Assembly: GCA_040386515.1 (NCBI GenBank)
Contig: JAZKFG010000002.1
Location: 79,074 to 143,073 of the forward strand
Reading direction: 5' to 3'
Origin: Patescibacteria group bacterium
GTDB lineage: Bacteria; Patescibacteriota; Minisyncoccia; Phycocordibacterales; CAIZLB01
DNA: 64,000 nt
Position 1 is the stretch's first letter. Each line of letters begins with the position of its first letter. The notes below the pieces were generated by a model. It was given only the letters and a program-made list of their open reading frames with translations. It ran no database searches and had not been told where the DNA came from. Made by a program: the position numbers and the translations under genes. Below, piece after piece: positions 23,393-59,420 of this stretch.

Positions 23393-24976
23393 TTACTGAC
23401 ATTTAGTATCTGTTGGCAATCGCAAAGAAGTTTGTGTAAGCATACTTCCATTACTGTCAGAACAATAGTAATTTCCAGAAGTAGAAGACTTTGCACTAAC
23501 CATCCAAGATTTTCCCGTACTATTACATACAACGCCTGATACATTTGGAGTTAAATCAGATATAAGTGTACTTAATCCACCACTTGTTTTGTCAGTAAAT
23601 ATTCCTGCACTACATGATTGTGTTACTGCTCCGTAGCCATTGTTATTTGCATAAAACAATTCAGCCTGAGCTCTCATGTTTGAAAGGGTGGCTTGCACCG
23701 CAGCGTCTTGTCCTTTTGATCGAACTTCTGCATTGGCTTTTTCTGACGTTACTACATTACATAGGTCAGCATATCCTACAAACATATCAGCACACGTTAT
23801 AACATTTAAAGGAGTAAGTAATGAGATCGAGTTCGTATTTGGAATTATGCTAAATTTAAATGTATCAGTAGCTTTTGTTCCTACAACAGATGGAGTTTTT
23901 GATCGTATTGATTGTATTAATCCATTTTTAACTAGTACGGTAAAAAGAATCTTTTGATTACCATTAACTGCATTTGCTGCAGCATCAGCGCCAGCATACA
24001 TATTTCCATAAAGTCTCGAATTAAATATCATACTTGCTCCCATTGCAATATCGTAGGGTATTGATACTTCGAATGTTTGACTACCATCTGTACCTAGACT
24101 AATTGATCGAGCAGTAAAGTCTGATTTATATATTGCATCAAGCGTAAAATCAATTTTCTTAGTGTTTATTCCTTCGTATGCATTTAAATAATTTAATGTA
24201 TCTGGAATTGCTACATAATTATTTCTAACTTTATTGATTGTTGTCTGATTGAGTAATACCTCTCCGTCTTTTAAATACTTGAGCATTGAATCATTTACAA
24301 GCTTGTATGTAGTATTGCCTTTGGCAATTGTTTTTGCTGAAAATAAACCTCCTGCTCCTGACACACTTGAAGTGTAATCAACCTCATAGGTTGGACCAGA
24401 TTTTGGCATAAGATTAAATGTACCATCAGTAGTATATGTATTTGTCACGTCTGCAACCTTGGCAACTTTTGAACATTCCATAACTCCTTTCTTTGGAGCT
24501 GCTCCAACTACCAATGAATTTCCTGTACTATCTACGCAATGATATGATGCCGCATTTAATTTTGCAGATACTATAAATGTGTTTTTTGTTGATGCACATG
24601 TGACTACGGTTGAGTATTTCTTAGTGGCAGAAATCAATTTTCCAAGCCCTGTTGTTGTATCTGCAAACATTCCGGCAGTACAAGATTGTGTTGTTATTCC
24701 GTAACTATTGCTGTTGCTGTAGTATAGCTCAGCCTGTGCGCGCATATTTGAAAGACTTGACTGAATATTTACAGTTGTCATGTTAAAAACTGAAGCAGCA
24801 GTAGAAGGTCCGATTATTTTAATATCATGATGAGCTGTTAAAACTATGCTTGAGTTATTTGCTCGTGCATTTTCTATTGTTGCTTTTGCAGCATCGATAA
24901 GTATTTGTTCATTTGTTGCAGCGCTTGTGTTAATTGATAATGTAAGGAGTAAAAGTGCACATGTTATTTTTTTCAT
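23393..24976 (-). CDS. Secreted protein with two tandem pilin-like globular domains (internal duplication)
   Basis: Signal peptide MKKITCALLLLTLS (ATG at 24976; the ORF track extends to a GTG at 25009). The repeats are LSNMRAQAELYYSNSNSYG..TQSCTAG and LSNMRAQAELFYANNNGYG..TQSCSAG, each ending in Y(H/Y)C.DS.G. Confidence 0.5.
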   Translation of the reverse strand: MKKITCALLLLTLSINTSAATNEQILIDAAKATIENARANNSSIVLTAHHDIKIIGPSTAASVFNMTTVNIQSSLSNMRAQAELYYSNSNSYGITTQSCTAGMFADTTTGLGKLISATKKYSTVVTCASTKNTFIVSAKLNAASYHCVDSTGNSLVVGAAPKKGVMECSKVAKVADVTNTYTTDGTFNLMPKSGPTYEVDYTSSVSGAGGLFSAKTIAKGNTTYKLVNDSMLKYLKDGEVLLNQTTINKVRNNYVAIPDTLNYLNAYEGINTKKIDFTLDAIYKSDFTARSISLGTDGSQTFEVSIPYDIAMGASMIFNSRLYGNMYAGADAAANAVNGNQKILFTVLVKNGLIQSIRSKTPSVVGTKATDTFKFSIIPNTNSISLLTPLNVITCADMFVGYADLCNVVTSEKANAEVRSKGQDAAVQATLSNMRAQAELFYANNNGYGAVTQSCSAGIFTDKTSGGLSTLISDLTPNVSGVVCNSTGKSWMVSAKSSTSGNYYCSDSNGSMLTQTSLRLPTDTKCQ

Positions 24977-25008
24977 ATGTACTTCATAATAGCATGAATT
25001 AAAAAACA

Positions 25009-25046
25009 CCTTGCGCAGTGACCTCTTGGAAGAGGTGTGCGCAAGG
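25009..25046 (-). terminator. Nested inverted repeat (CCTTGCGCA..CCTCTT/AAGAGG..TGCGCAAGG) followed on the minus strand by a T-run. Putative intrinsic terminator of the GC-rich gene and left boundary of the GC island.
   Basis: Seen directly: the 9-bp arms are perfect reverse complements and the inner 6-bp arms as well; TGTTTTTTAATT follows on the minus strand. Confidence 0.5.
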
Positions 25047-25066
25047 CGATGGGGAAGTCGAGTTGT

Positions 25067-25690
25067 TTACTTGGCGGGTGTTGGTGCGGTAGGTTCGGCT
25101 ACCGGTGGAATGGTGGGTTGCATCGGCGCTTCAATGATGTCGGGATCTTTGGCAGGTTCCGTTTTATCCGGAGCGAGAGGATTGACCAATCGGCCAGGGG
25201 TCTCCTTGGGGACCGGAATTTCCACCATGCCGGGAGGGGTGTATCCTTTGGCGGACCAAGCGGTTCCAACTCCGCTGCTGGTTTCAGCAACTGGGTAGTT
25301 TTCACTACTGACGTAGTCGTAGTAGTACTCCCCGACGAATGGTGTAAACTGAATGTTTCCATCGTGGTCCACAGTCTTTACGAGCTTACTCGTCCCCGGA
25401 GGGAGGGATGTGTTCTCTCCTGTCACTTGGTCCATGGAGACCAAATACTCAATGCCGCCCTCGGCAACCAGGATTTGGTTTTTATCGGACTCGTACTGGC
25501 TGGTGAGCTTGCCCTCCATCAGGACGGTAACGACGGCTGGCTGTGTGGCAATGGTCTTGTTCTTCCCCTTGATCTGCAGTGATCCTGGTGCAACAAGTTG
25601 CACCAGGAGAACGACGATGAGGATAGTGATGAGGAGTTTGTTCACGGAGAATTTCGTCGCCGGAACTTCGTCTTCTGGAGTGTGAGGCAT
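25067..25690 (-). CDS. Membrane-anchored, Pro-rich hypothetical protein encoded by a GC-rich (about 55%) island. The ORF track extends to 25801, but the AT-rich 5' extension is probably not coding.
   Basis: ATG at 25690 (MPHTPEDEV..) is followed by the TM helix LLITILIVVLLVQLV and a Pro/Thr-rich C-terminus. The composition jump coincides with the gene boundaries. Confidence 0.45.
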   Translation of the reverse strand: MPHTPEDEVPATKFSVNKLLITILIVVLLVQLVAPGSLQIKGKNKTIATQPAVVTVLMEGKLTSQYESDKNQILVAEGGIEYLVSMDQVTGENTSLPPGTSKLVKTVDHDGNIQFTPFVGEYYYDYVSSENYPVAETSSGVGTAWSAKGYTPPGMVEIPVPKETPGRLVNPLAPDKTEPAKDPDIIEAPMQPTIPPVAEPTAPTPAK

Positions 25691-25744
25691 ATTAGCGGGT
25701 GGTGTTGGGTGGGTGAAACAGCTCGAGTTTAGGTGGCTGCATCT

Positions 25745-25788
25745 CTCAAAATATCTATATATACTAAGAGATGCAGCCAATTTTGTGT
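25745..25788. promoter_or_regulatory. Perfect 12-bp inverted repeat (GGCTGCATCTCT / AGAGATGCAGCC) with a 20-nt AT-rich loop, lying between the LamG-pilin gene and the GC-island gene
   Basis: Seen directly in sequence; no clear T-run on the minus strand, so it is either a terminator or an operator-like site. Confidence 0.4.
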
Positions 25789-25838
25789 GAAAGAACTGCA
25801 TGTATTATACACTTTTTTAGTGCAAAAGTCAATGATAC

Positions 25839-26615
25839 TTATTTCATCAAACTACTCTCCATTGCATATAAATCATGCACACCTGAGGCTGTTAAATCCT
25901 TTCCAAAAATACGAACATTATCAATATATCCAGTATATCCCCATTCATCAGCTGACCCTCCTGAAACAGTCTTTTTCATACCAATTATTAATGGCTGTGT
26001 TGATGTAATGGGTGCAGTGCCGCCTGTTCCTGATGAAAAAATCTTACCATCAAGATATGTTTTACTTACTGTCCCGTCAAATACTCGAGCAACATGATGC
26101 CAAACTCCAACTGTTGGAGTGAAGGATCCTGTAAATGTTATCCCATACGAAACGTCGTAGGCAACATCCTGACTTTTATTAATTGCAACATTGTATGTCT
26201 TATCCCATGCCTCTGATTTAAACCAAAATGAAATCGAATACTTACTTCCTAAGTCTAAGAAGTTTGAATCAGGAACTCGTACATAATCATTTACACCATC
26301 AAATCGTATAGAATATCCTGTCCCGTCTGGAGTATCAGTTGACCAACCGTATGGAGAGGCAATATTTGTTAGTGTTCCCGTATTGTTATTACCTGATAAA
26401 TCTCTGGTTGTTAATCCTGTTCCTTCATTAAAATCCCACATTGCTAAAGCTTGATCTCCTGCAACATGATACATGTTTGCTTCAAATTGCAATCCAGCCG
26501 CAACTCGACTTTTTTCTCTGGCTGCACTTAAAGACACTAAAGCTATACTAGCCAAAAGACTAATTATTGAAATAACTACAAGGAGTTCTATAAGTGTAAA
26601 TCCTTTCCGACGCAT
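25839..26615 (-). CDS. Type IV pilin-like protein with a C-terminal LamG/concanavalin-like lectin domain
   Basis: Prepilin leader MRRKG|FTLIELLVVISIISLL (G-F cleavage site with Glu at +5); LamG_3-like blocks WHHVARVFDG..TYLDGK and GYIDNVRIF. Confidence 0.7.
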   Translation of the reverse strand: MRRKGFTLIELLVVISIISLLASIALVSLSAAREKSRVAAGLQFEANMYHVAGDQALAMWDFNEGTGLTTRDLSGNNNTGTLTNIASPYGWSTDTPDGTGYSIRFDGVNDYVRVPDSNFLDLGSKYSISFWFKSEAWDKTYNVAINKSQDVAYDVSYGITFTGSFTPTVGVWHHVARVFDGTVSKTYLDGKIFSSGTGGTAPITSTQPLIIGMKKTVSGGSADEWGYTGYIDNVRIFGKDLTASGVHDLYAMESSLMK

Positions 26616-27486: not shown

Positions 27487-27499
27487 CCGTTCCTATTTG

Positions 27500-27571
27500 T
27501 GACCCCACGGAGAGTCGAACTCCGGTTAACAGATTGAAAACCTGCTGTCCTAACCATTAGACGATGGGGCC
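27500..27571 (-). tRNA. tRNA-Glu (anticodon UUC)
   Basis: Reverse complement folds as a cloverleaf: acceptor GGCCCCA/TGGGGTC, D-arm TCGTCTAATGGTTAGGAC (near-identical to E. coli tRNA-Glu), anticodon loop TTTTCAA with U33 and TTC at positions 34-36, T-arm GGAGTTCGACTCTCC. CCA is not encoded. Confidence 0.8.
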
Positions 27572-37256: not shown

Positions 37257-39770
37257 ATGAAGAAGAGATCTCTACTTATCATTTTAATTTCGGCCCTTAC
37301 TGTATTTTTTTCAAGTGCAAGCATTTTCGCTGCAGCTCCAAGTAAAGCTTTAGGATTTCAAGGTCAGTTGTTTAGCAATGGCACACCGCTCAGCAGTAGT
37401 GTAAACGCAACATTTACATTTTACAACTCTTTAAGTGGTGGCTCTACAACTGGCTCTCCAATCTCAAAAACAATTACAGTTGCTAACGGATATTTCGGTA
37501 CTCAATTCACAGAAGCAGACACTACAGGAGTAAACTTTGATCAGGATTTATATATTCAGGTAAACATCAACGGAACTGATTTGTCTCCACGAACAGCAAT
37601 CAACGCTGCACCAACTGCATTAAAAGCCTTTGGAACATTTTCATATGCAAGTGCACCAACTGTAGGTCCTGTGGGAAGTCTTTACTTCAATACTGTTGAC
37701 GGCAAATTATATACATCAAATGGAACAGCATGGTCATCAGCATCATCTGTATGGTCTACAAATGGAACATTTGCATATTACAATGCTGGAAGTGTTGGAA
37801 TTGGAACAACTACTGCTGCAAGTTCAACAACTGCACTAACCATTGATTTAGGTTTAAACCAGACACAAGGAATTCATATTACAGGTACAAAAGATAAATT
37901 TATTTTCCTTGAAAGACTCGGTTCAGGGGGAAGGGGTTTAGTAATTGGGCAACAAAATGGAGGACAGATGTATGGAGGAAATGCATCAGTTATTCGTTCT
38001 GCAGGAACTTTAGATGAAGTGATTGAAATTTCTCCTGGAAGAGATCTGTCTTTGAACAAAGGTTCTGTTCAGATTGCTCCTTTTGGAGGACTTGTATCGA
38101 TCGGTAATGCTTCACCTGCGTATAAACTCGATATTGCAAGTTCTTCTTCTGCAAATGCTGTAGACATGCTTAGATTCCAAAACACTGCAAATGCAGCTGC
38201 AAATACTGGAGCAAGCATATTATTTACAGCAAATAGAAGTGGGGAAACTGCAACAGATGTAGCACGATTGTCTGGAGCAATTACAGATATTACTGCAGGT
38301 GCATATAAAGGTGCTTTAATTTTCTCTACTGCAAATAATGCGGCTCCAGCTGAAAGAATGCGACTTGATAGTAACGGATTCTTAGGTATTGGTACAACTG
38401 CACCAACTGCACGTTTTGATATTAACGATGGAGGAATTGGTATGATCATTGGTGCCGATAACAATGGAAACCAAACTCGAACAAACAATACAACAAAGGT
38501 TGGACGAATTGCTTCTCCTCACTATACAAACAATGAAGAACCAATGGCTATGATTTTCAGTAGTTCTGGAACGTCAACAAGTATAGTGTCATTCGGAGGT
38601 GGTTCTGCAGTTATGAATGCTGCAACAGAAATTAGATTCTTTACTGCGGCAGATACTATAACTACTGGTGGAACTTCACGAATGGTAATTGATACAAATG
38701 GAAATGTTGGTATTGGTACTACAACTCCGACAACAGGATCAAGACTTGATATCTGGGGGAATATGCAGGTAGGAACATCGTCGCTCCCAGCATTCTTTGT
38801 TGATTCGTCAACATCACGAATAGGTGTAGGAACAACTACACCAGGACGAACTCTTACTGTCGCAGGACTGGGAATGCAGATATATAGATCAGGAGGCGGT
38901 GTACCACATATTGAAATAATTCAAGGAGGAGCAGCAGCAGATTTAAGAAACTGGAGACTTAACGGAGAGATAGACGGATCATTTAACATATATCCAATGA
39001 CTGATGCTAACTCAAACTTAAGACCGCTTCGATATACGCATGATGGGCGACTGCAAATAACAAACTCAACTATGTCTAACGTCGATGCACGACTCTATGT
39101 AGATAGTAATAGTGTTGCATCTACCTCAGCTGTATTTATGAATGGATTTGTTGGTATTGGAACAACAACTCCAACTGCAAACTTAACTGCGTCAGGAACA
39201 ATTAGATTTTCTTCACTTGTAGGTGGTGGGGCAAACCTAGTGGTAGATTCACTTGGAAATGTAACAGTTTCTTCTGATGAGCGATTGAAGGATATAAAAG
39301 GAATGTTTACAACAGGTCTTGATAAAATCCTTGCACTTAATCCGATTTCATATAAATGGAAACCAGAAACTGGATATGATACTACTAACACATACGCAGG
39401 ATTTAGTGCACAAAATGTTCAATCTGCCATTCCAGAAGCAGTGGGAACTGACAACCGAGGATTCCTAACGCTTGCCGACAGACCAATACTAGCTGCACTT
39501 GTGAATGCTGTAAAAGAGCTTGCTGTAAAAATTGGAAATATGTCAAACAAAGTGCAGACAAAAGAACTTTGTCTTGATGATGTATGTATCACAAAAGATC
39601 AGTTGAGAACAATTTTGCAGCAGCAAAATAATATAAACATTAATACGATTAATGTTGTAACTCCACCGCCAACAACTTCTACAACAACTGTTGAAATTAC
39701 TCCTGCGCCAGCTCCAACACCAGAGCTTGTTGCGCCGGTTGAGCCAGCAACTCCTCCTGCAACTGAATAG
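37257..39770 (+). CDS. Secreted fibre-like protein: Gly/Thr/Ala-rich with repeated (V/L)GIGTT(T/A)P motifs and a C-terminal peptidase-S74-type intramolecular chaperone (autoproteolytic) domain, followed by a Pro/Thr tail
   Basis: Signal peptide MKKRSLLIILISALTVFFSSASIFAAAP. There are four or more MRLDSNGFLGIGTTAPTARFDI-type repeats. The C-terminal block is SSDERLKDIKG..LNPISYKWKPE..AGFSAQNVQSAIPEAV. Confidence 0.6.
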   Translation: MKKRSLLIILISALTVFFSSASIFAAAPSKALGFQGQLFSNGTPLSSSVNATFTFYNSLSGGSTTGSPISKTITVANGYFGTQFTEADTTGVNFDQDLYIQVNINGTDLSPRTAINAAPTALKAFGTFSYASAPTVGPVGSLYFNTVDGKLYTSNGTAWSSASSVWSTNGTFAYYNAGSVGIGTTTAASSTTALTIDLGLNQTQGIHITGTKDKFIFLERLGSGGRGLVIGQQNGGQMYGGNASVIRSAGTLDEVIEISPGRDLSLNKGSVQIAPFGGLVSIGNASPAYKLDIASSSSANAVDMLRFQNTANAAANTGASILFTANRSGETATDVARLSGAITDITAGAYKGALIFSTANNAAPAERMRLDSNGFLGIGTTAPTARFDINDGGIGMIIGADNNGNQTRTNNTTKVGRIASPHYTNNEEPMAMIFSSSGTSTSIVSFGGGSAVMNAATEIRFFTAADTITTGGTSRMVIDTNGNVGIGTTTPTTGSRLDIWGNMQVGTSSLPAFFVDSSTSRIGVGTTTPGRTLTVAGLGMQIYRSGGGVPHIEIIQGGAAADLRNWRLNGEIDGSFNIYPMTDANSNLRPLRYTHDGRLQITNSTMSNVDARLYVDSNSVASTSAVFMNGFVGIGTTTPTANLTASGTIRFSSLVGGGANLVVDSLGNVTVSSDERLKDIKGMFTTGLDKILALNPISYKWKPETGYDTTNTYAGFSAQNVQSAIPEAVGTDNRGFLTLADRPILAALVNAVKELAVKIGNMSNKVQTKELCLDDVCITKDQLRTILQQQNNININTINVVTPPPTTSTTTVEITPAPAPTPELVAPVEPATPPATE

Positions 39771-39797: not shown

Positions 39798-40646
39798 ATG
39801 AGTTTCCATTCATTTCCGCGTCTCAATAATAAAAAAGGATTTACACTTATTGAACTCCTTGTAGTTATTTCTATTATTTCACTACTTTCATCAATTGTAT
39901 TCACTTCATTATCGAGTGCACGAGTTAGAGCTGCAAAAGTTGCAGGAATGGAATTTGCCTCACGAATGGATAGAACTATTGGATTGAACACTGCAGTGGA
40001 TATTGATTTTGATGAGGGAACTGGAACAAAAGTTGTAAATAAATCAGATGGAAACCAAGCAACCGCAGTAGGCGGTCCTACATGGTCAACTGATACGCCA
40101 ACAGGAATTGGCTATTCAATGGCATTTTCAGGTACTCAAAACATAAATGTATATGCAACAGGTGATGGAATGAATGCAACTAATGATGGAAGGGCTTTTA
40201 CATATGCCGCATGGTATGAACCAAGAGTAGTGAATCCGGCAACAGGGATTTATATATTAAACAGATCAGGATATCACTCAGGAATAACGCACTCAGCATC
40301 TGGAAGACTTGGCTGTACACAGTGGTTTACCGATATAACAAACATCAATATACAATATACAACGAACGTCGATGCGGGAAGATGGTATCATGTTGCGTGC
40401 ACAGTCGACAGTCTTAAAAAAACTATTACATTATATGTTAACGGTAATGCTGTTAATAAAGCAACATACACGACAGGTAAGATTTTATATGATTATTCAG
40501 CAGTTCCATATACAATAGGAGCATTTAGTTCTACGTATGCAGCAGATGGAAATATTGACCAAGTACGAGTATTTACACAATCTCTCGTTGCTCAACAAGT
40601 TAAGGATTTATACGATGCTACAAAGGCACAATTTGCCCTAAAGTAG
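39798..40646 (+). CDS. Type IV pilin-like protein with a C-terminal LamG/lectin-like domain (paralog of 25839..26615)
   Basis: KG|FTLIELLVVISIISLL prepilin motif; RWYHVACTVD..LYVNGN and GNIDQVRVF LamG blocks. Confidence 0.65.
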   Translation: MSFHSFPRLNNKKGFTLIELLVVISIISLLSSIVFTSLSSARVRAAKVAGMEFASRMDRTIGLNTAVDIDFDEGTGTKVVNKSDGNQATAVGGPTWSTDTPTGIGYSMAFSGTQNINVYATGDGMNATNDGRAFTYAAWYEPRVVNPATGIYILNRSGYHSGITHSASGRLGCTQWFTDITNINIQYTTNVDAGRWYHVACTVDSLKKTITLYVNGNAVNKATYTTGKILYDYSAVPYTIGAFSSTYAADGNIDQVRVFTQSLVAQQVKDLYDATKAQFALK

Positions 40647-44387: not shown

Positions 44388-46166
44388 ATGAATGACGACA
44401 AAAGAGTGACATATTTCGGTTTGACCGATGCCAGAAATCAAGAGAGAAAATTTGGTATTTATGACGAGGATAGACTTCGTCATATGTATGCTATTGGTAA
44501 GACTGGTATGGGTAAATCAACTTTGCTCGAAAACATGGCCATTCAAGATATTCAAAATGGCCAAGGTTTGGCATTTCTCGATCCTCATGGAAAAACAGTT
44601 GAGCTTCTTCTTGAGCATGTTCCAAAGCATCGTATTAAAGATGTTATTTATATTGCACCATTTGATCTTGAGCATCCTATTGCCTTTAACGTGCTTGAAG
44701 ATGTGGGCGATCCAGATCCAGTTCGACGTCAGCTTATCGTTTCAGGCTTGATGAGTACATTTAAAAAGCTGTGGCAAGATCAGTGGAGTGCTCGAATGGA
44801 ATACATATTGAACTATGCACTTCTCGCACTTTTGGAAATTCCTGATGCAACACTTCTTGATGTGAACCGTATGCTTTCTGATAAGCAGTTCAGAAACAAT
44901 GTTGTTCGTCAGCTTAAAGAGCCAACTGTGAAAATGTATTGGGAAAAAGAATTTGCAGCCTATACTGATAAAGTTGTTGCTGAAGCCATGCCTGCTATTC
45001 AAAACAAAGTAGGGCAATTTATTTCAAATAGTTTGATTCGAAATATTATCGGACAAACAAAATCTTCTTTTGATATTCGAGAAATCATGGATCAGCGAAA
45101 GATTTTGCTTATCAATCTTTCAATCGGACGAATCGGTGAAGATGCGGTAAACCTTTTAGGGTCATTGTTTGTGACAAAGATTTATCTTGCTGCCATGTCG
45201 CGTGCTTCTATACCAGATCGGGAAATGAAGCATTTGCCAAACTTCTATTTATACGTGGATGAGTTTCAGAACTTTACCAACGATTCATTTGCCCAAATTC
45301 TTGCCCAGGCCAGAAAGTATAAGCTGAGTTTGATTGTAGCGCACCAGTATGTAAAGCAAATGACAGAAGTTGTGCATGATGCAATTTTCGGTAACGTAGG
45401 AACTATGATTACATTTCGAGTAGGTGCGGATGATGGTGAATCTCTTGAAAAAGAATTTCAGCCAACATTCGTTGTAGAGGATTTCGTAAACCTTGGACGT
45501 TTTCAGATGTATTTAAAGCTTATGATAAATGGAGTAACATCTGGAGCTTTTTCTGCAAAGGGAATGGGTCCATGGCCATCTCCAACTGAATCATATGTTG
45601 ATGAAATTCTTGCCTCATCACGTGAGCAATATACACATCCACGAAAAGAGGTAGAAGATCATATATTACAGTGGACTCTTGGTGGTGCCTCGGGTACAGC
45701 TGCAGGAGGTGCTCCTAAGCCTGTTTCTAGTGATAATGAGAATATGCAAGGTCCAGTTGCAGCGAATACCAATAATGCCCCAAGAGAACCTCGACAGCAA
45801 TCATCACAACCAATGCAGGGACCTCGAGATAATAGAGGTGGTGAGAGAGGTGTAGATAATCGTTCTCAGTCGTCACGACCATCACAACCTCAATCTCCAA
45901 GACAGCCTGAACGAAGTCGAGATGGTAATAGAGACGAGAGAGCACCAGTTCGAGAACGAGAGCAACAGCCTCGTAGAGACATGCAACAGAATTCAGCACA
46001 CAACTCTGCACCAAAAGTTCATAATCCATTTGCAACGGCCTTTAAAGCAGTGCTTGAAAAACCGGTCGAAGAAAAAAAAGATGCATCAACTGAATCGTCT
46101 TCGTCTCAGCAGAAGAGAGACATAGACCCTGACGTTTTGAAAAGCATGCTTGGTCTTCAAGAATAA
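44388..46166 (+). CDS. VirD4/TraG/TraD-like P-loop ATPase (type IV coupling protein family) with a long disordered Q/R/S/P-rich C-terminal tail. No TM segments and no other T4SS genes nearby.
   Basis: Walker A GKTGMGKST, Walker B LYVDEFQNF, the AHQY sensor motif, and an ILLINLSIG block typical of TraG-D_C. Confidence 0.5.
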   Translation: MNDDKRVTYFGLTDARNQERKFGIYDEDRLRHMYAIGKTGMGKSTLLENMAIQDIQNGQGLAFLDPHGKTVELLLEHVPKHRIKDVIYIAPFDLEHPIAFNVLEDVGDPDPVRRQLIVSGLMSTFKKLWQDQWSARMEYILNYALLALLEIPDATLLDVNRMLSDKQFRNNVVRQLKEPTVKMYWEKEFAAYTDKVVAEAMPAIQNKVGQFISNSLIRNIIGQTKSSFDIREIMDQRKILLINLSIGRIGEDAVNLLGSLFVTKIYLAAMSRASIPDREMKHLPNFYLYVDEFQNFTNDSFAQILAQARKYKLSLIVAHQYVKQMTEVVHDAIFGNVGTMITFRVGADDGESLEKEFQPTFVVEDFVNLGRFQMYLKLMINGVTSGAFSAKGMGPWPSPTESYVDEILASSREQYTHPRKEVEDHILQWTLGGASGTAAGGAPKPVSSDNENMQGPVAANTNNAPREPRQQSSQPMQGPRDNRGGERGVDNRSQSSRPSQPQSPRQPERSRDGNRDERAPVREREQQPRRDMQQNSAHNSAPKVHNPFATAFKAVLEKPVEEKKDASTESSSSQQKRDIDPDVLKSMLGLQE

Positions 46167-46943: not shown

Positions 46944-47023
46944 TTCGTTTAAGGATTTTGAAGTGTCGCGGGACATCAATGTATACAAAGGAACGCAAAT
47001 TAATGTATACTGTTTTAAACACT

Positions 47024-47779
47024 ATGAAAATATTCGTCATCAACCTACGAAGAAGAATGGACAGAAGAATCAGCATGGAAACACAGCTTAATCGGGAAAA
47101 GCTGCCTTTTGAGATTATTCCGGCACTCGAACTTAAAGATATTCAGAAAAGCGACGTGAGTGGTGTATTCAACAAAGGAACCATGTATCAGCCAAACGAA
47201 ATCGCGTGTTCAGCCTCTCATCGATTGATATACGCGCGCATGATTAAGGACAACATTCCAAAGGCTATGATATTCGAGGATGACGTGGTTATGCCTGTTG
47301 ATTTTAGTAATATTGTTGAAGCGTTGGATAATCATACGTATGATGACATTGATTGGCTTCAAGTAGATTATCCCAGCGTTGGATTTGGCTTTATACGACA
47401 ATGGACGAAGGTATACGTAGGGTTTTTTGAATTCAAAATAACCTATATGCTCAAGTTCTTCGTTAAGTTTCCGATTGTGGTTGCAGTATCGCTATACGAG
47501 CAGTTTCTGCTCTGGTTTGTTGGACAAACTTTTCAGTCACGCATTCCAACGGTAGTTCGGTTTTACCGTGACGTGTATTTTGCGAGTTGTTATATAGTGA
47601 CACTAAGCGCAGCAAAGAAGTTGCTTGCAGCCCAGACACCGCTTATGTACACGGCAGACAAGCTCCCAAACATGCTTAAAAAAGAAGGGTTTAAAATGCG
47701 GATTTGCATCCCTCGATTTACGTATCAAGACAATCAGTCGTTCGGCTCAGACCTAACTCCTGTTATTCCTCGTAAGTAA
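47024..47779 (+). CDS. Family 25 glycosyltransferase (LPS/LOS beta-1,4-galactosyltransferase-like), paralog 1
   Basis: MKIFVINLRRRMDRR start characteristic of GT25; about 65% identical to 49616..50362. Confidence 0.6.
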   Translation: MKIFVINLRRRMDRRISMETQLNREKLPFEIIPALELKDIQKSDVSGVFNKGTMYQPNEIACSASHRLIYARMIKDNIPKAMIFEDDVVMPVDFSNIVEALDNHTYDDIDWLQVDYPSVGFGFIRQWTKVYVGFFEFKITYMLKFFVKFPIVVAVSLYEQFLLWFVGQTFQSRIPTVVRFYRDVYFASCYIVTLSAAKKLLAAQTPLMYTADKLPNMLKKEGFKMRICIPRFTYQDNQSFGSDLTPVIPRK

Positions 47780-47781
47780 TA

Positions 47782-48588
47782 TTAGATAACGTTTGAATAA
47801 TCTTTTTCATCGTATATATATCGAAGTCCGAATCCAATATCAAATGACTGGTATCCAAGTTCTGCATAGTGTTTTGCCAAGATCTTGCTTGTCGGTCCTG
47901 TTGAAATTGCAAGCACGACTTTTTTGTCGGCAAGGTTTGAAAGGACGTTGTCAACAGTTGCTATTATATTATGAAGTTTGTCGAAAGAATTTTCCTTTGG
48001 CGTGTCAACGTAGGTTGCTGAGGCAAAGGGTATGGTCGTTTTACGTATCTCTGCATTCGCATCCTCATTCGTTACGAATACCACATGCTTGTCCTGTAAA
48101 AATTCGTTAAAAAACCGGAGCATGAGGTTTCTATAATAAAAGAAGTGCGCATCCGCGTACGCGGCGTCTTTGTTGAACATCTTTCTAAATTCAACCTTAA
48201 GGGGGAGCCAACAAGAAAGCTTGCCGTCTGTCTTCGAAAGTTCCTGATTAGTGTAATTTACAAAAACTGGGATGCTTAGGATATAGGGTGACTCAAGAGT
48301 GTATTCCTTAATAATTTTCCGAAGACCAAGCTCAAGCTCCTTTTCGTGCGGCTGGTAGTGAATGTCTCGACCGTGAAGTAGGCCTATTTCTCCATCCCCG
48401 ATACGGATGATTGATTTGCCTTTTGCTATTTGATCAAAAAGCTCGTGCTCGGAATAAAAGCGCGCGGAATTAGGGTAGGTTTTTTGGGGATAAGCCATTG
48501 CATAGGCGAGTACAAAAGAAGGATACCGTAAAAGGTAGTTTTTGAAAAAATTAACGATTCTCTTAAGGAATGCGATTTTAGAATCCAT
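47782..48588 (-). CDS. DUF1792-like (GT-D type) putative glycosyltransferase, paralog 1
   Basis: Conserved IIRIGDGEIGLLHGRDIHYQ block (DxE-like metal motif); paralog of 51930..52724. Confidence 0.4.
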   Translation of the reverse strand: MDSKIAFLKRIVNFFKNYLLRYPSFVLAYAMAYPQKTYPNSARFYSEHELFDQIAKGKSIIRIGDGEIGLLHGRDIHYQPHEKELELGLRKIIKEYTLESPYILSIPVFVNYTNQELSKTDGKLSCWLPLKVEFRKMFNKDAAYADAHFFYYRNLMLRFFNEFLQDKHVVFVTNEDANAEIRKTTIPFASATYVDTPKENSFDKLHNIIATVDNVLSNLADKKVVLAISTGPTSKILAKHYAELGYQSFDIGFGLRYIYDEKDYSNVI

Positions 48589-52727: not shown

Positions 52728-53591
52728 CTATAGACAGAGAATATTTGTTTGAATTGGTGTAGATTCTAGAAATGCTTGAATAGTGTCTTTAGTGATTTCT
52801 TTTTTATTTTGATCAATATCATATATTCGATATCCAAGATCGAGTATGAATGTCAATAACTCCTCGCTGCTAATATTCATTTTCTTATAGAAAAGAGGTG
52901 TAAATTCTATAAGCATTTTTGGATGATATGTTGCAATATTTTTTTTCATGCCTTGCAGCGCATAATACTCATAGCCCTCAACATCCATTTTCATAAAATC
53001 AATTCGATCTGATTCATTCCAGAAATCATCAAACACTTTCACTTCTGCTCGCTCTACTGAAGTGGCCTCGTCTCGCTTGTCGAAGGTTGTTCTTCCGATG
53101 TTGAGGTTGTCCAAGTATATTTCCTTTACTTCATTCTTATTTGATAGACCAAAGTTGCACACGGTAACATTGGTAAAATTATTTGCCTGAATACTTTGAT
53201 TGATTTGATTCACAAGTTTTGGCAATGGCTCAAAAGAATATACTTTTCCTTTTTTTGCTATGGCTGCCATACACATAGAGTGTTGCCCAATATTTGCGCC
53301 TATATCTAAACACTTACTATTTTCTTGAACATGTTCTTTTAATATTTCTAATATCTCAGGCTCCCATATGCCATTATTGTAAATGTCTTTATCGATAAGT
53401 CCATTCTCAGGATCAATCATTATCTTGTATGAAATATCTTTGTAGGTAACATCCTTAAGAGTCGGCTTTGTAAAATGCACAAGATTGATATTTTCTTTCT
53501 TATTGAGAAAAATATATTGTCCGTATTTGTATGCTTTGTACACAGCAATATAGAGCGAATGAGGAAGATACTTTTTTAGTGTTGAATTCAT
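52728..53591 (-). CDS. FkbM-family methyltransferase, paralog 2
   Basis: CLDIGANIGQHSM..VYSFEPLP. Confidence 0.65.
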   Translation of the reverse strand: MNSTLKKYLPHSLYIAVYKAYKYGQYIFLNKKENINLVHFTKPTLKDVTYKDISYKIMIDPENGLIDKDIYNNGIWEPEILEILKEHVQENSKCLDIGANIGQHSMCMAAIAKKGKVYSFEPLPKLVNQINQSIQANNFTNVTVCNFGLSNKNEVKEIYLDNLNIGRTTFDKRDEATSVERAEVKVFDDFWNESDRIDFMKMDVEGYEYYALQGMKKNIATYHPKMLIEFTPLFYKKMNISSEELLTFILDLGYRIYDIDQNKKEITKDTIQAFLESTPIQTNILCL

Positions 53592-58175: not shown

Positions 58176-59420
58176 GTGGATCTTGATACACGCCTAAACT
58201 CTGAAACCACGAACCTAATAAACCTCATGAAAACGTTAAAAAACTTGGTGATGTATTTCATTGCCTGGGCACTATTGACTGTGCCTACTTTCGCCCTTGA
58301 TACATTCGAGGGAATGATTACATTCAGCCGCACATTGACTATGAAGTCTGCGGTCGAATTGCTGGTACCTGACTACAATGTTGTGTGCCCTAGTCGAGTT
58401 CATCCTCGCGGCATTCGGCATACGGTGGATACTTCCTACTATATCGAAGGTTTCTTCAGACGCGGAAAAGGAGAATTCGTTCTCCGAGAAGTATGGCCAA
58501 CGAAGACTATAGAAGAGGGGAGGTTGAAGGCGTCCGGTAAGGTGAAAGAAATTTCTCCTACACCCGATCCTGTGACACCTCCTATTACTCCTCCTCTGGC
58601 TGAACAACCTAAACCTCTTCCACCTGTGACTCCTCCGATTGCTGCTGCTCCTGCACCAGTAATTGATTCTCCTGCCTCTGAAATTTCTGAAAACGTTATC
58701 GACATGTTTACGTCTTTCTCTGCACCTCCGCCTACTGCCTCTTTCGAGACGGTATTCGCACAAACCACTTTTCCGTCTACAACGACGACCATTGGTTCGT
58801 TCGAAAACTTTAACTTCACAGAGCCGGTAGATGAGGGAGTTGCTCTTGATGGAAAGATTGTCTTTGAGGACAACATTGATTTGTCCAAGACAATTAAAGG
58901 TGATGGTCCTGTCATACAGAATTCTCAACCTGGGAATGCATTTTCTACAACTGATACGCAACCTGCAAAACCCTCCCCTCAAGAAGGTCCAATGATTTTT
59001 CCTTCAAAAAATGATCGGAGAAGCATTGCTGAAAGTAATGCGGCGAAAATTGATGCAGTAAGTTCTACGACTAGTGAAGAAACTGGAGCCGCTGTGGTTA
59101 AAAAACATTTGACTGCAGATCAGTTCGTGATGATTATTGTCGGATGTGTTGCACTCGCAGCGTACTTGTTGTATCTCCTGTGGCATAAACGTGTCTGGAG
59201 AAAAATTTTTTCAAAAGACGAACTGGGTATTGGTGTTGAAAGTAAATTACCTACAGTGAATACTTTTCCTATTGCTGCACCTGCACCATCACCAGGTAAA
59301 ACAATTTTGCCTCCAGAGAAAAAACCTCTGCCGGAAAGAAAGCCTGTTGACGCTCAAGCATCGCACTCAAGGGAACACTTGCTAAGTACCTTCGGTGTCC
59401 AAGTTGATGACGAATCATGA
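58176..59420 (+). CDS. Pro-rich surface protein with a signal peptide and a C-terminal TM anchor
   Basis: VTPPITPP/VTPPIAAAPAP repeats; C-terminal FVMIIVGCVALAAYLLYLLWHKR TM. Confidence 0.45.
   Translation: MDLDTRLNSETTNLINLMKTLKNLVMYFIAWALLTVPTFALDTFEGMITFSRTLTMKSAVELLVPDYNVVCPSRVHPRGIRHTVDTSYYIEGFFRRGKGEFVLREVWPTKTIEEGRLKASGKVKEISPTPDPVTPPITPPLAEQPKPLPPVTPPIAAAPAPVIDSPASEISENVIDMFTSFSAPPPTASFETVFAQTTFPSTTTTIGSFENFNFTEPVDEGVALDGKIVFEDNIDLSKTIKGDGPVIQNSQPGNAFSTTDTQPAKPSPQEGPMIFPSKNDRRSIAESNAAKIDAVSSTTSEETGAAVVKKHLTADQFVMIIVGCVALAAYLLYLLWHKRVWRKIFSKDELGIGVESKLPTVNTFPIAAPAPSPGKTILPPEKKPLPERKPVDAQASHSREHLLSTFGVQVDDES

Follow-up and report, generated by a model that had tools for sequence, protein, structure and literature searches.

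Patescibacteria (the candidate phyla radiation, CPR) are ultra-small episymbionts whose host attachment and host range are poorly understood. We analysed a 64-kb stretch of DNA from a Patescibacteria group bacterium (hereafter the window; all coordinates count from its first letter, and its other open reading frames, or ORFs, are referred to as native genes), in which a single minus-strand gene near 25 kb, encoding a 207-residue orphan protein, forms a sharply bounded GC-rich island. As we describe below, the gene belongs to a self-contained unit with a predicted promoter and terminator of its own, and its coding sequence (CDS) has very probably been exchanged for a highly divergent allele between otherwise near-identical genomes.

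Among described systems, the closest anatomical analogue of this unit is the phage moron, a single ORF with its own promoter and terminator that lies between adjacent genes and is unlike its neighbours in composition (PMC4378225); in behaviour, the locus resembles those at which strain-variable surface proteins are replaced, where conserved flanks enclose divergent alleles that move by homologous recombination and persist under diversifying selection. The likeness to morons extends to the single ORF, the sigma-70-type promoter and stem-loop terminator (signals predicted here by consensus and by folding), the atypical composition, the presence or absence of an analogous unit between adjacent conserved genes of two related genomes (L126, below), and the lack of a recognisable recombinase target. 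Unlike a moron, however, the window's unit is chromosomal, with no hits in PHROGs, no viral relatives, and no phage genes among the 50 ORFs of the window; it is GC-richer than its host and not merely different from it; and its slot holds highly divergent homologous alleles in conspecific strains, as opposed to being simply gained or lost.

With surface-protein replacement loci, the unit shares 99.5%-identical flanks around a 39%-identical allele, mosaic breakpoints, and a membrane-anchored product encoded near pilus and surface genes, but alleles at those loci usually resemble their genome or are AT-richer, whereas here they are GC-richer, with C-rich third codon positions. Within the CPR, a hypervariable surface protein of Gracilibacteria varies in repeat number and at synonymous sites within one gene (PMC6851277), and not by whole-allele replacement as seen here. 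Ameliorating islets of horizontal gene transfer (HGT) are comparable in having GC content, GC content at third codon positions (GC3), and relative synonymous codon usage (RSCU) far from native values, a sporadic strain-variable distribution, and orphan products; they differ in that for our unit no donor is identifiable, no amelioration is seen across a species split, and the atypical composition is confined to the CDS and terminator, the promoter and leader transferred with them being AT-rich. Integron cassettes are likewise modular single-gene units, and two adjacent units in one other genome (g1 and g2 of L001) resemble a short array in which relatives differ in the second member. However, the 64 kb encode neither an intI-type integrase nor any tyrosine recombinase, every unit brings a promoter and terminator of its own, breakpoints vary, and the 3′ hairpin (CCTTGCGCA...TGCGCAAGG) with its T-run contains no attC core sites (RYYYAAC/GTTRRRY). 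We also considered a diversity-generating retroelement target and rejected it: the window encodes no reverse transcriptase, no repeat of the CDS occurs internally or nearby, and the alleles differ over their full length, with indels.

A GC-rich gene with divergent alleles between near-identical flanks

The mean GC content of the window is 37.1%. In 650-nt sliding windows (mean 0.371, sd 0.033), GC content peaks at 0.545 at 25031-25680 (z 5.27), with the runner-up in the entire 64 kb at 0.474, and a changepoint segmentation delimits a GC-rich block around this peak (Table 1), the strongest outlier of the stretch, both bearing out the abrupt rise from about 35% to about 55% noticed in an earlier, sequence-only reading of the stretch. 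Codon usage deviates just as strongly: GC3 is 0.62 in the island CDS, 0.20-0.22 in both neighbouring genes, and 0.17-0.44 over the other 49 ORFs of at least 120 aa. The shift is not an amino acid effect, because the same protein rewritten in the window's native codons would have a GC3 of only 0.26 (GC 0.42). It consists chiefly of T-to-C changes at third positions, with the C frequency there (C3) rising from 0.09-0.14 to 0.31-0.40 in island genes, and NNC/(NNC+NNT) reaching 0.68 in the window's island CDS (0.51-0.79 across island genes) against a native 0.24 ± 0.08. The long ORFs of the other frames, which the earlier reading took to be spurious, are just that; one of 181 aa, on the plus strand at 25037-25582, is in register with the codons of the real minus-strand gene, and is a shadow ORF because its stops correspond to sense TTA, CTA, and TCA codons, which GC-rich usage avoids.

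The gene is, with high confidence, protein coding, and its product is the membrane-anchored, Pro-rich protein of a single minus-strand gene that had been proposed from the sequence: a short polar cytoplasmic N-terminus is followed by one transmembrane (TM) anchor (residues ~16-38, by hydropathy), a small beta-rich domain (~50-130), and a disordered, Pro-rich tail (27% Pro in the last 52 residues, 12% over the whole protein) carrying the motif NPLAPDKTEpAKDPdIIEAPMQP. AlphaFold2 (AF2) models comprise a helix at 16-33 and six strands, with a core pLDDT of 62-79 over residues ~50-130 in the family-alignment model; pLDDT is 42 for the single-sequence model and 54 for a four-sequence model, which has a small beta core. 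A Foldseek search of PDB with the AF2 model gave weak OB/cold-shock-like matches at E ≥ 0.07, which we did not use. The island protein matches no Pfam family at E ≤ 1, N_methyl included, and neither its family nor the other unit proteins described below have a significant sequence match in Pfam, PHROGs, or PDB. All alleles begin with MPH, MPA, or MSN and have a 15-residue polar N-terminus; identification as a type IV pilin or pseudopilin was rejected, there being no prepilin cleavage/methylation motif and N_methyl matching the neighbouring gene at 25839-26615 but not this one.

A word-indexed search of 5.8 billion proteins returned only the protein itself, on a 292-kb Patescibacteria contig. 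An exhaustive HMMER search covering 1.84 billion representatives contributed two genuine relatives, and a profile search a fourth cluster, so that the family comprises four clusters and five alleles (the fifth from a 90%-cluster variant), with relatives of the protein found only in AT-rich Patescibacteria contigs. Three further HMMER hits (P0003-P0005) were discarded as repeat-inflated matches to large repeat proteins (2-11 stretches in FG-GAP/Ig, Calx-beta, and DUF6263 proteins) that the profile search did not recover. Looking up P0001, the LamG pilin, and the glyoxalase by exact match gave no record. One of the contigs used for comparison, L002, is from an independent JGI assembly, and L001, L003, L004, L126, and L127 are from Logan. 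Every family member is GC-rich (GC 0.50-0.55, GC3 0.52-0.65) in a background of ~0.33-0.38 GC, the alleles standing ~17-20 GC points above it, and in each the GC-rich block opens 10-40 nt ahead of the true ATG and closes where the terminator hairpin ends; segmentation likewise places the block limits from start codon to terminator in L001 g1, L001 g2, L002, L003, and L004.

Comparison with L002 provides the evidence for allele exchange. Upstream, 383 of 385 nt are identical over the 3′ end of the neighbouring LamG-pilin gene, the promoter, the hairpin, and the leader, as far as window position 25698, and the proportion of synonymous differences (pS) in the LamG gene is 0.037. From 7 nt before the ATG the DNA becomes unalignable, with 39% amino acid identity between the encoded proteins and pS at 0.65-1.0; DNA similarity returns to ~80-90% in the C-terminal tail (pS 0.42, and a proportion of nonsynonymous differences, pN, of 0.07), and from ~7 nt past the stop the two sequences agree again at 79 of 80 nt, over the terminator and farther downstream (window 25060-24981). 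Because near-identical flanks enclose a 39%-identical allele with saturated synonymous sites, we interpret the difference as allele replacement by recombination, and consider it highly likely that the CDS has been replaced horizontally between near-identical conspecific genomes. In the conserved core, pN is 0.33-0.38 and pS 0.71-0.76, indicative of purifying selection; since core pN is about half of pS, the gene is translated and constrained, and its alleles are old and not hypermutated in place. The same replacement pattern separates L001 from L003 and L004, with a 5′ breakpoint elsewhere, 123 nt inside the CDS, whereas between L001 and L126 it is the N-terminal anchor of g1 that has been swapped. 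Because breakpoints thus vary between allele pairs, the process is better described as homologous than as site-specific recombination.

The proposal that the island is a horizontally acquired cassette therefore holds in part: it is a discrete single-gene unit of foreign-looking composition that is exchanged, as L002 shows, but cassette ends are not supported. Its insertion between two pilin genes is a conjecture, as no relative with an empty site was found for the window locus and L002, the only relative there, holds another allele. Homologues of the LamG pilin are at most 46% identical (neither of the two contexts examined is syntenic), and the 30-nt conserved leader had no match in a metagenome collection that does not include L002's contig.

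Promoter, leader, and terminator of the unit

We are confident that the block is part of one autonomous, monocistronic minus-strand unit comprising a promoter, a structured leader, the GC-rich CDS, and an intrinsic terminator (Table 1). The putative promoter sits in AT-rich DNA directly past the stop codon of the LamG-pilin gene, which ends at 25839, and is 100% conserved in L002; a promoter function is suggested by its match to consensus. The leader that would follow is ~105 nt long and contains a 46-nt stem-loop (predicted dG of the leader fold −34 kcal/mol, z −6.7) that is identical in L002 and has counterparts in the similarly long leader hairpins of L001 g2 and of the unit inserted in L126. 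This hairpin is probably mRNA-stabilising or regulatory; it is not the terminator of the LamG gene, because no U-run follows it on the minus strand. Within the leader, a 16-codon upstream ORF (uORF) includes a C/A-rich unstructured tract (25695-25715) with no Shine-Dalgarno (SD) sequence. In L002 the uORF AUG is fused in frame with the main ORF. uORFs also occur in the leaders of L001 and L003, where one of them overlaps the main ORF and the other is fused with it; such an arrangement may reflect translational coupling or chance.

At the other end of the unit, the terminator stem-loop lies 20 nt past the TAA stop and is followed immediately by UGUUUUUU, as a predicted Rho-independent terminator should be; the hairpin has a dG of −27.3 kcal/mol (z −6.2), the minus-strand sequence right after it is UGUUUUUUAAUU, and the whole is identical in L002. 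Each GC-rich unit examined terminates with a comparable hairpin and T-run. The two hairpins had been seen from the sequence as brackets of the island. The nested palindrome with T-run at 25009-25046 is as described, and the inverted repeat on the 5′ side, placed at 25745-25788, is real but lies about 10 nt away from there. As cassette ends, however, they fail, given that the 3′ hairpin is the intrinsic terminator and the 5′ hairpin belongs to a leader, downstream of the unit's own promoter, and is conserved between alleles. Nor are the hairpin arms dispersed sites, and their recurrence as uptake sequences or att-like sites is not supported: a single additional exact copy of TGCGCAAGG exists, and GGCTGCATCTCT is as frequent as expected by chance.

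The structured leader sets the island gene apart from the native genes, only 3 of 49 of which have an SD-like sequence; many carry a TGnTATAAT-like −10 box whose end lies 5-10 nt upstream of the ATG (examples in Table 1). This points to leaderless or near-leaderless mRNAs as the rule in the source genome, to which the island gene would be an exception. We note in passing a perfect 12-bp palindrome (TCCTGGTGCAAC/GTTGCACCAGGA, 2-nt spacer) at 25583-25608, inside the CDS at the end of the region coding for the TM anchor, which forms the strongest local stem of the CDS mRNA fold.

Table 1. Features of the unit, its neighbours, and related signals in the window
Feature	Coordinates	Strand	Details
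GC-rich block	25007-25740	none	GC 0.546 inside vs 0.352 outside; two-changepoint maximum-likelihood segmentation, logLR 42
CDS, 207-aa orphan protein	25067-25690	−	624 nt; NCBI MES2622883.1, V4576_00570
Segment differing between window and L002	25061-25697	−	CDS plus ~7 nt each side; alignment
Putative sigma-70-type promoter	25804-25832	−	TTGACT-17 nt-TATAAT; consensus match 11/12, best in 23-28 kb
Leader stem-loop	25734-25779	−	arms 25734-25754 and 25759-25779, 21 nt each, 86% complementary; perfect 13-bp outer stem
uORF, 16 codons	25692-25742	−	translation MQPPKLELFHPPNTTR, then stop; AUG in hairpin 3′ arm, stop 1 nt before main AUG
Intrinsic terminator (predicted)	24997-25046	−	nested GC-rich hairpin 25046-25009, then U-run 25008-24997
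LamG/N-methyl pilin	25839-26615		Pfam 3.7e-18 and 1e-8
528-aa secreted protein, downstream neighbour	23393-24979	−	signal peptide; weak sub-threshold ComP-like match (E 0.023)
Gene starts with TGnTATAAT-like box, examples	19297, 40684, 3695, 31243, 47782-48588(−), 52728-53591(−), 23393-24976(−)		

Origin of the GC-rich composition

Taken as a package, the data lead us to lean, at somewhat better than even, toward an autonomous strain-variable surface-protein unit that is exchanged horizontally and derives from a GC-rich gene pool. Under this model, alleles would circulate horizontally among related Patescibacteria and swap by homologous recombination, crossing over within the leader and terminator, which are conserved; the route would probably be natural transformation, given that the organisms carry competence-type pili, and both frequent HGT among Patescibacteria and competence pili have been reported (PMC12455944). 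The alleles would come from a compositionally distinct pool of ~50-58% GC with C-rich third positions, which may also supply the other orphan single-gene units of such genomes. That the GC-richness itself records origin in a higher-GC pool, possibly of higher-GC Patescibacteria, and not selection in situ, we hold more tentatively, at slightly short of even; the higher-GC donor named in the sequence-only reading is plausible and no more, in that no homologue lies outside AT-rich Patescibacteria contigs and all alleles are GC-rich in situ. In favour of such a pool, Patescibacteria include lineages of 45-55% GC (for example, L010 and L031), the island codon table as a whole looks like one from a genome of 50-58% GC, alleles that replace others are GC-rich in every case, and the GC3 spread among alleles matches differing residence times. 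A housekeeping kinase and a cytoplasmic ImmA-like gene, described next, are affected as well, and import is favoured because little else readily accounts for a housekeeping kinase being replaced by a GC-rich one.

These genes belong to a wider set of GC-rich units in other lineages. In L001, the family member (g1) is followed by a second GC-rich unit encoding a lipoprotein (g2), which has a TTGACA-17-TAATAT promoter of its own and whose leader hairpin is 24 bp long; a third unit lies 5 kb away. L126, congeneric with L001 at 80-88% DNA identity, has 6 GC-rich genes out of 27, including a g2 allele only 28% identical to that of L001 and again GC-rich. The cytidylate kinase genes of the two (L001 3164-3835, L126 5714-6415) are 34-36% identical, against 82-96% for their neighbours, with GC3 values of 0.48 and 0.53 against a background of ~0.3, which looks like xenologous replacement of a housekeeping gene. 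L126 also contains a ~720-nt segment that is missing from L001 and forms a complete unit, in which a promoter and hairpin leader, both AT-rich, precede a 202-aa CDS, which is GC-rich, and a terminator, with repeats of just 3-5 nt at its junctions. The 91 nt to its left (L126 16890-16981, L001 13500-13591) are 100% identical in genomes otherwise ~85% identical, which may mark a recent recombination tract that stops at the indel. Sharp GC islands that code for protein also turn up occasionally in ~0.93 Mb of other loci, most of them from Patescibacteria (L114 and L077 are weaker cases). One such island, shared by L099 (5195-5707, minus strand) and L100 (10698-11210, minus strand), is a 170-aa ImmA/IrrE-like gene with a sub-threshold Peptidase_M78 match, lying between a lipoprotein gene and a GreA-like gene, with GC 0.52 and GC3 0.65 in a contig of 0.33 GC. 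In their RSCU signature, the island genes of two lineages resemble one another (r 0.43-0.65) and are anticorrelated with native genes; the native gene sets of those same lineages correlate with each other at r 0.90. As a separate observation, TTTT[CT]TTGCAC follows the terminators of all three L001 units (7796, 8701, 14301, plus strand), which account for three of its five occurrences in 2 Mb on both strands; it is missing from the window's unit, and could be either a shared unit end-sequence or a lineage-specific terminator habit.

Several observations weigh against a foreign-pool origin and against the package as a whole. The search for a donor or reservoir came up empty, and neither the family nor the other unit proteins occur outside AT-rich contigs (undersampling is possible): viral, plasmid, and phage collections contain no homologue of the family protein (phage records by tblastn), viral scans with three further unit proteins were negative, and so was a family-profile scan of GTDB representatives, among which the source genome is not included. 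The alleles are saturated at synonymous sites, yet all have GC3 of 0.52-0.65, and g1 and g3, which are vertically shared, have orthologues of equal GC3 in the two sister species represented by L001 and L126 (0.65/0.65 and 0.61/0.64). Their pS of 0.29-0.30 lies at the low end of the native range (0.22-0.70), and in this g1 and g3 are unlike decaying imports, because such imports should have more synonymous change, not less. In the L126 indel unit, the CDS and terminator alone are GC-rich, the promoter and leader being AT-rich, and at third positions generally the A-to-G change is small, T-to-C dominating. The one occupied-versus-empty pair concerns that analogous unit of another lineage, with no empty-site counterpart for the window locus, and what speaks for a surface or host-interaction role is topology and neighbourhood, the fold searches being uninformative.

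Some of these points are what one would expect of a resident gene class with a selectively kept, GC-rich codon dialect, in which old alleles are held by balancing selection and shuffled by recombination, and the C-rich third positions are maintained by translation speed or accuracy (through GNN-anticodon tRNAs), by expression control through tRNA supply, or by mRNA stability. Synonymous divergence is saturated, yet none of the five alleles has lost its GC-richness; in L001 and L003, the 41 conserved codons at the N-terminus have a pS of 0.38, like that of the flanking native genes (0.42 and 0.65), but a GC3 of 0.66 in both; and the low pS and equal GC3 of g1 and g3 in two species fit as well. 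GC-richness runs from within 10-40 nt of the ATG to the terminator in all units, even where breakpoints lie elsewhere, and an AT-rich promoter and leader travel with a GC-rich CDS in one indel unit. Selection is also suggested by a C3/(C3+G3) of 0.56-0.73, which breaks the parity rule, with NNC preferred and AAA, GAA, and CAA mostly kept, while the consensus promoter, 5′ hairpin, and strong terminator would suit expression that is strong or under tight control. The mRNA of the CDS has slightly more structure than shuffled versions, but with z only −2.55 (20 shuffles) we rejected mRNA structure as the cause of the GC-richness. Against a selected dialect, well-expressed native genes are unshifted (MreB, 0.20; SecA, 0.21) or mildly shifted (TypA, 0.42; GyrB, 0.36), although the ~1 Mb of retrieved loci contained no EF-Tu, GroEL, DnaK, or ribosomal protein genes for codon comparison. 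Translational selection is expected to be weak in slow-growing symbionts with reduced genomes; preferring C endings in four-fold families departs from the optimal-codon pattern that is usual in AT-rich bacteria; the cytoplasmic ImmA/IrrE-like gene and the replaced cytidylate kinase are likewise GC-rich; and the spread of GC3 among alleles (0.50-0.65) fits differing residence times. On balance, we consider this explanation unlikely, though it deserves serious attention.

The remaining explanations carry far less weight. GC-biased gene conversion, in which heteroduplex repair during allele exchange at a recombination hot spot pushes the locus toward G+C, would account for GC being raised exactly where the alleles differ, at a locus where recombination is evident. 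It is nevertheless very improbable, as it should raise G and C alike (two-fold codons ending in a purine have z of −1.2 to 2.2, pyrimidine-ending codons z of 3.4-7), and the GC boundary tracks the CDS and terminator and not recombination tracts, the leader between promoter and hairpin remaining AT-rich. A cassette moved by an integron-like or other site-specific recombinase, with the hairpins as recombination sites, could draw on the single-gene unit with hairpins near both ends, on the 720-nt presence/absence polymorphism of the analogous unit, and on the TTTT[CT]TTGCAC common to the ends of the three L001 units, a motif that is missing from the window's unit. This idea is largely refuted: a scan of all 50 window ORFs found no integrase, transposase, recombinase, reverse transcriptase, or phage gene, and a PHROGs search gave 0 hits; the unit has its own promoter and no attC-type R/L boxes; the hairpin arms do not recur, breakpoints vary among allele pairs, and the indel junctions share 3-5 nt only. 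We give still less credence to an assembly chimera or contaminant join, or to a structured noncoding RNA (ncRNA) in place of a gene, even though the GC change is abrupt, several frames are open, and GC islands in AT-rich genomes are a classic ncRNA signature. Chimerism is refuted because the independent L002 assembly reproduces both AT-to-GC junctions, and junctions of AT-rich flank and GC-rich gene recur in L001, L003, L004, L126, and L127; as for an ncRNA, Rfam finds only a tRNA-Glu (27499-27571) in the window and no RNA in the other islands, the family is conserved with pN below pS, and the other frames are shadow ORFs.

Returning to the favoured package, a strain-variable, membrane-anchored orphan protein encoded near pilin genes is a concrete candidate determinant of host or phage interaction, and a surface or interaction role under diversifying selection is a tentative proposal that we rate as somewhat less probable than its absence. 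The less ordinary part of our findings is that unrelated orphan units in at least two lineages have the same GC-rich, C3-rich signature in ~35% GC genomes. If a hidden higher-GC gene pool is responsible, it would be a major unsampled source of CPR accessory genes; if selection is responsible, it would amount to an unusual, locus-specific maintenance of codon usage in reduced genomes. In the boldest form of the latter, which we think improbable, AT-rich Patescibacteria would have a distinct class of autonomous single-gene units whose coding regions are actively held at ~55% GC, with C-rich third positions, as the second codon dialect of a mobile, strain-variable accessory pool of orphan proteins, surface proteins in many cases. 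GC-richness would then be a selected property of the units and not a fading foreign signature, with the window's gene one hypervariable member, and it might serve to control expression by way of tRNA supply, to prolong mRNA life, or to have the units recognised and retained in DNA uptake and recombination. Either way, atypical GC content as a sign of recent foreign import can mislead in Patescibacteria.

Neighbouring genes and other outliers in the window

Around the unit, the window is ordinary chromosome encoding many surface functions, among them four N-methyl pilins, a sortase, a CARDB protein, penicillin-binding proteins (PBPs), and a polysaccharide cluster. Of the flanking genes named in the sequence-only reading, the LamG pilin is confirmed, but the "pilin-like" secreted neighbour has only a weak similarity to the ComP family of DNA-uptake pilins. 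This 528-aa neighbour contains two similar modules, near its N- and C-termini, with the motif SNMRAQAEL(Y/F)Y(S/A)NN..YG.

Compositional outliers milder than the island occur elsewhere in the window. Two glycosyltransferase genes of the polysaccharide cluster, at 46979-47779 (plus strand) and 47782-48588 (minus strand; the pair matching GT25 and GT-D), combine a raised GC3 of 0.43-0.44 with the strongest C-ending preference among native genes (0.40-0.51), and may be older or milder imports. A 397-aa ORF at 58227-59420 (plus strand), just upstream of secA and with no Pfam or PHROGs match, underlies the second-highest GC window (0.474; gene GC 0.447, GC3 0.36). Finally, an 837-aa Peptidase_S74 protein, whose domain is of the endosialidase-chaperone, tail-spike type, is encoded at 37257-39770 (plus strand) directly upstream of a second LamG/N-methyl pilin (39798-40646, plus strand), and a homologue of the TrwB/type IV secretion system (T4SS) coupling protein lies 4 kb beyond that pilin, at 44388-46166 (plus strand).

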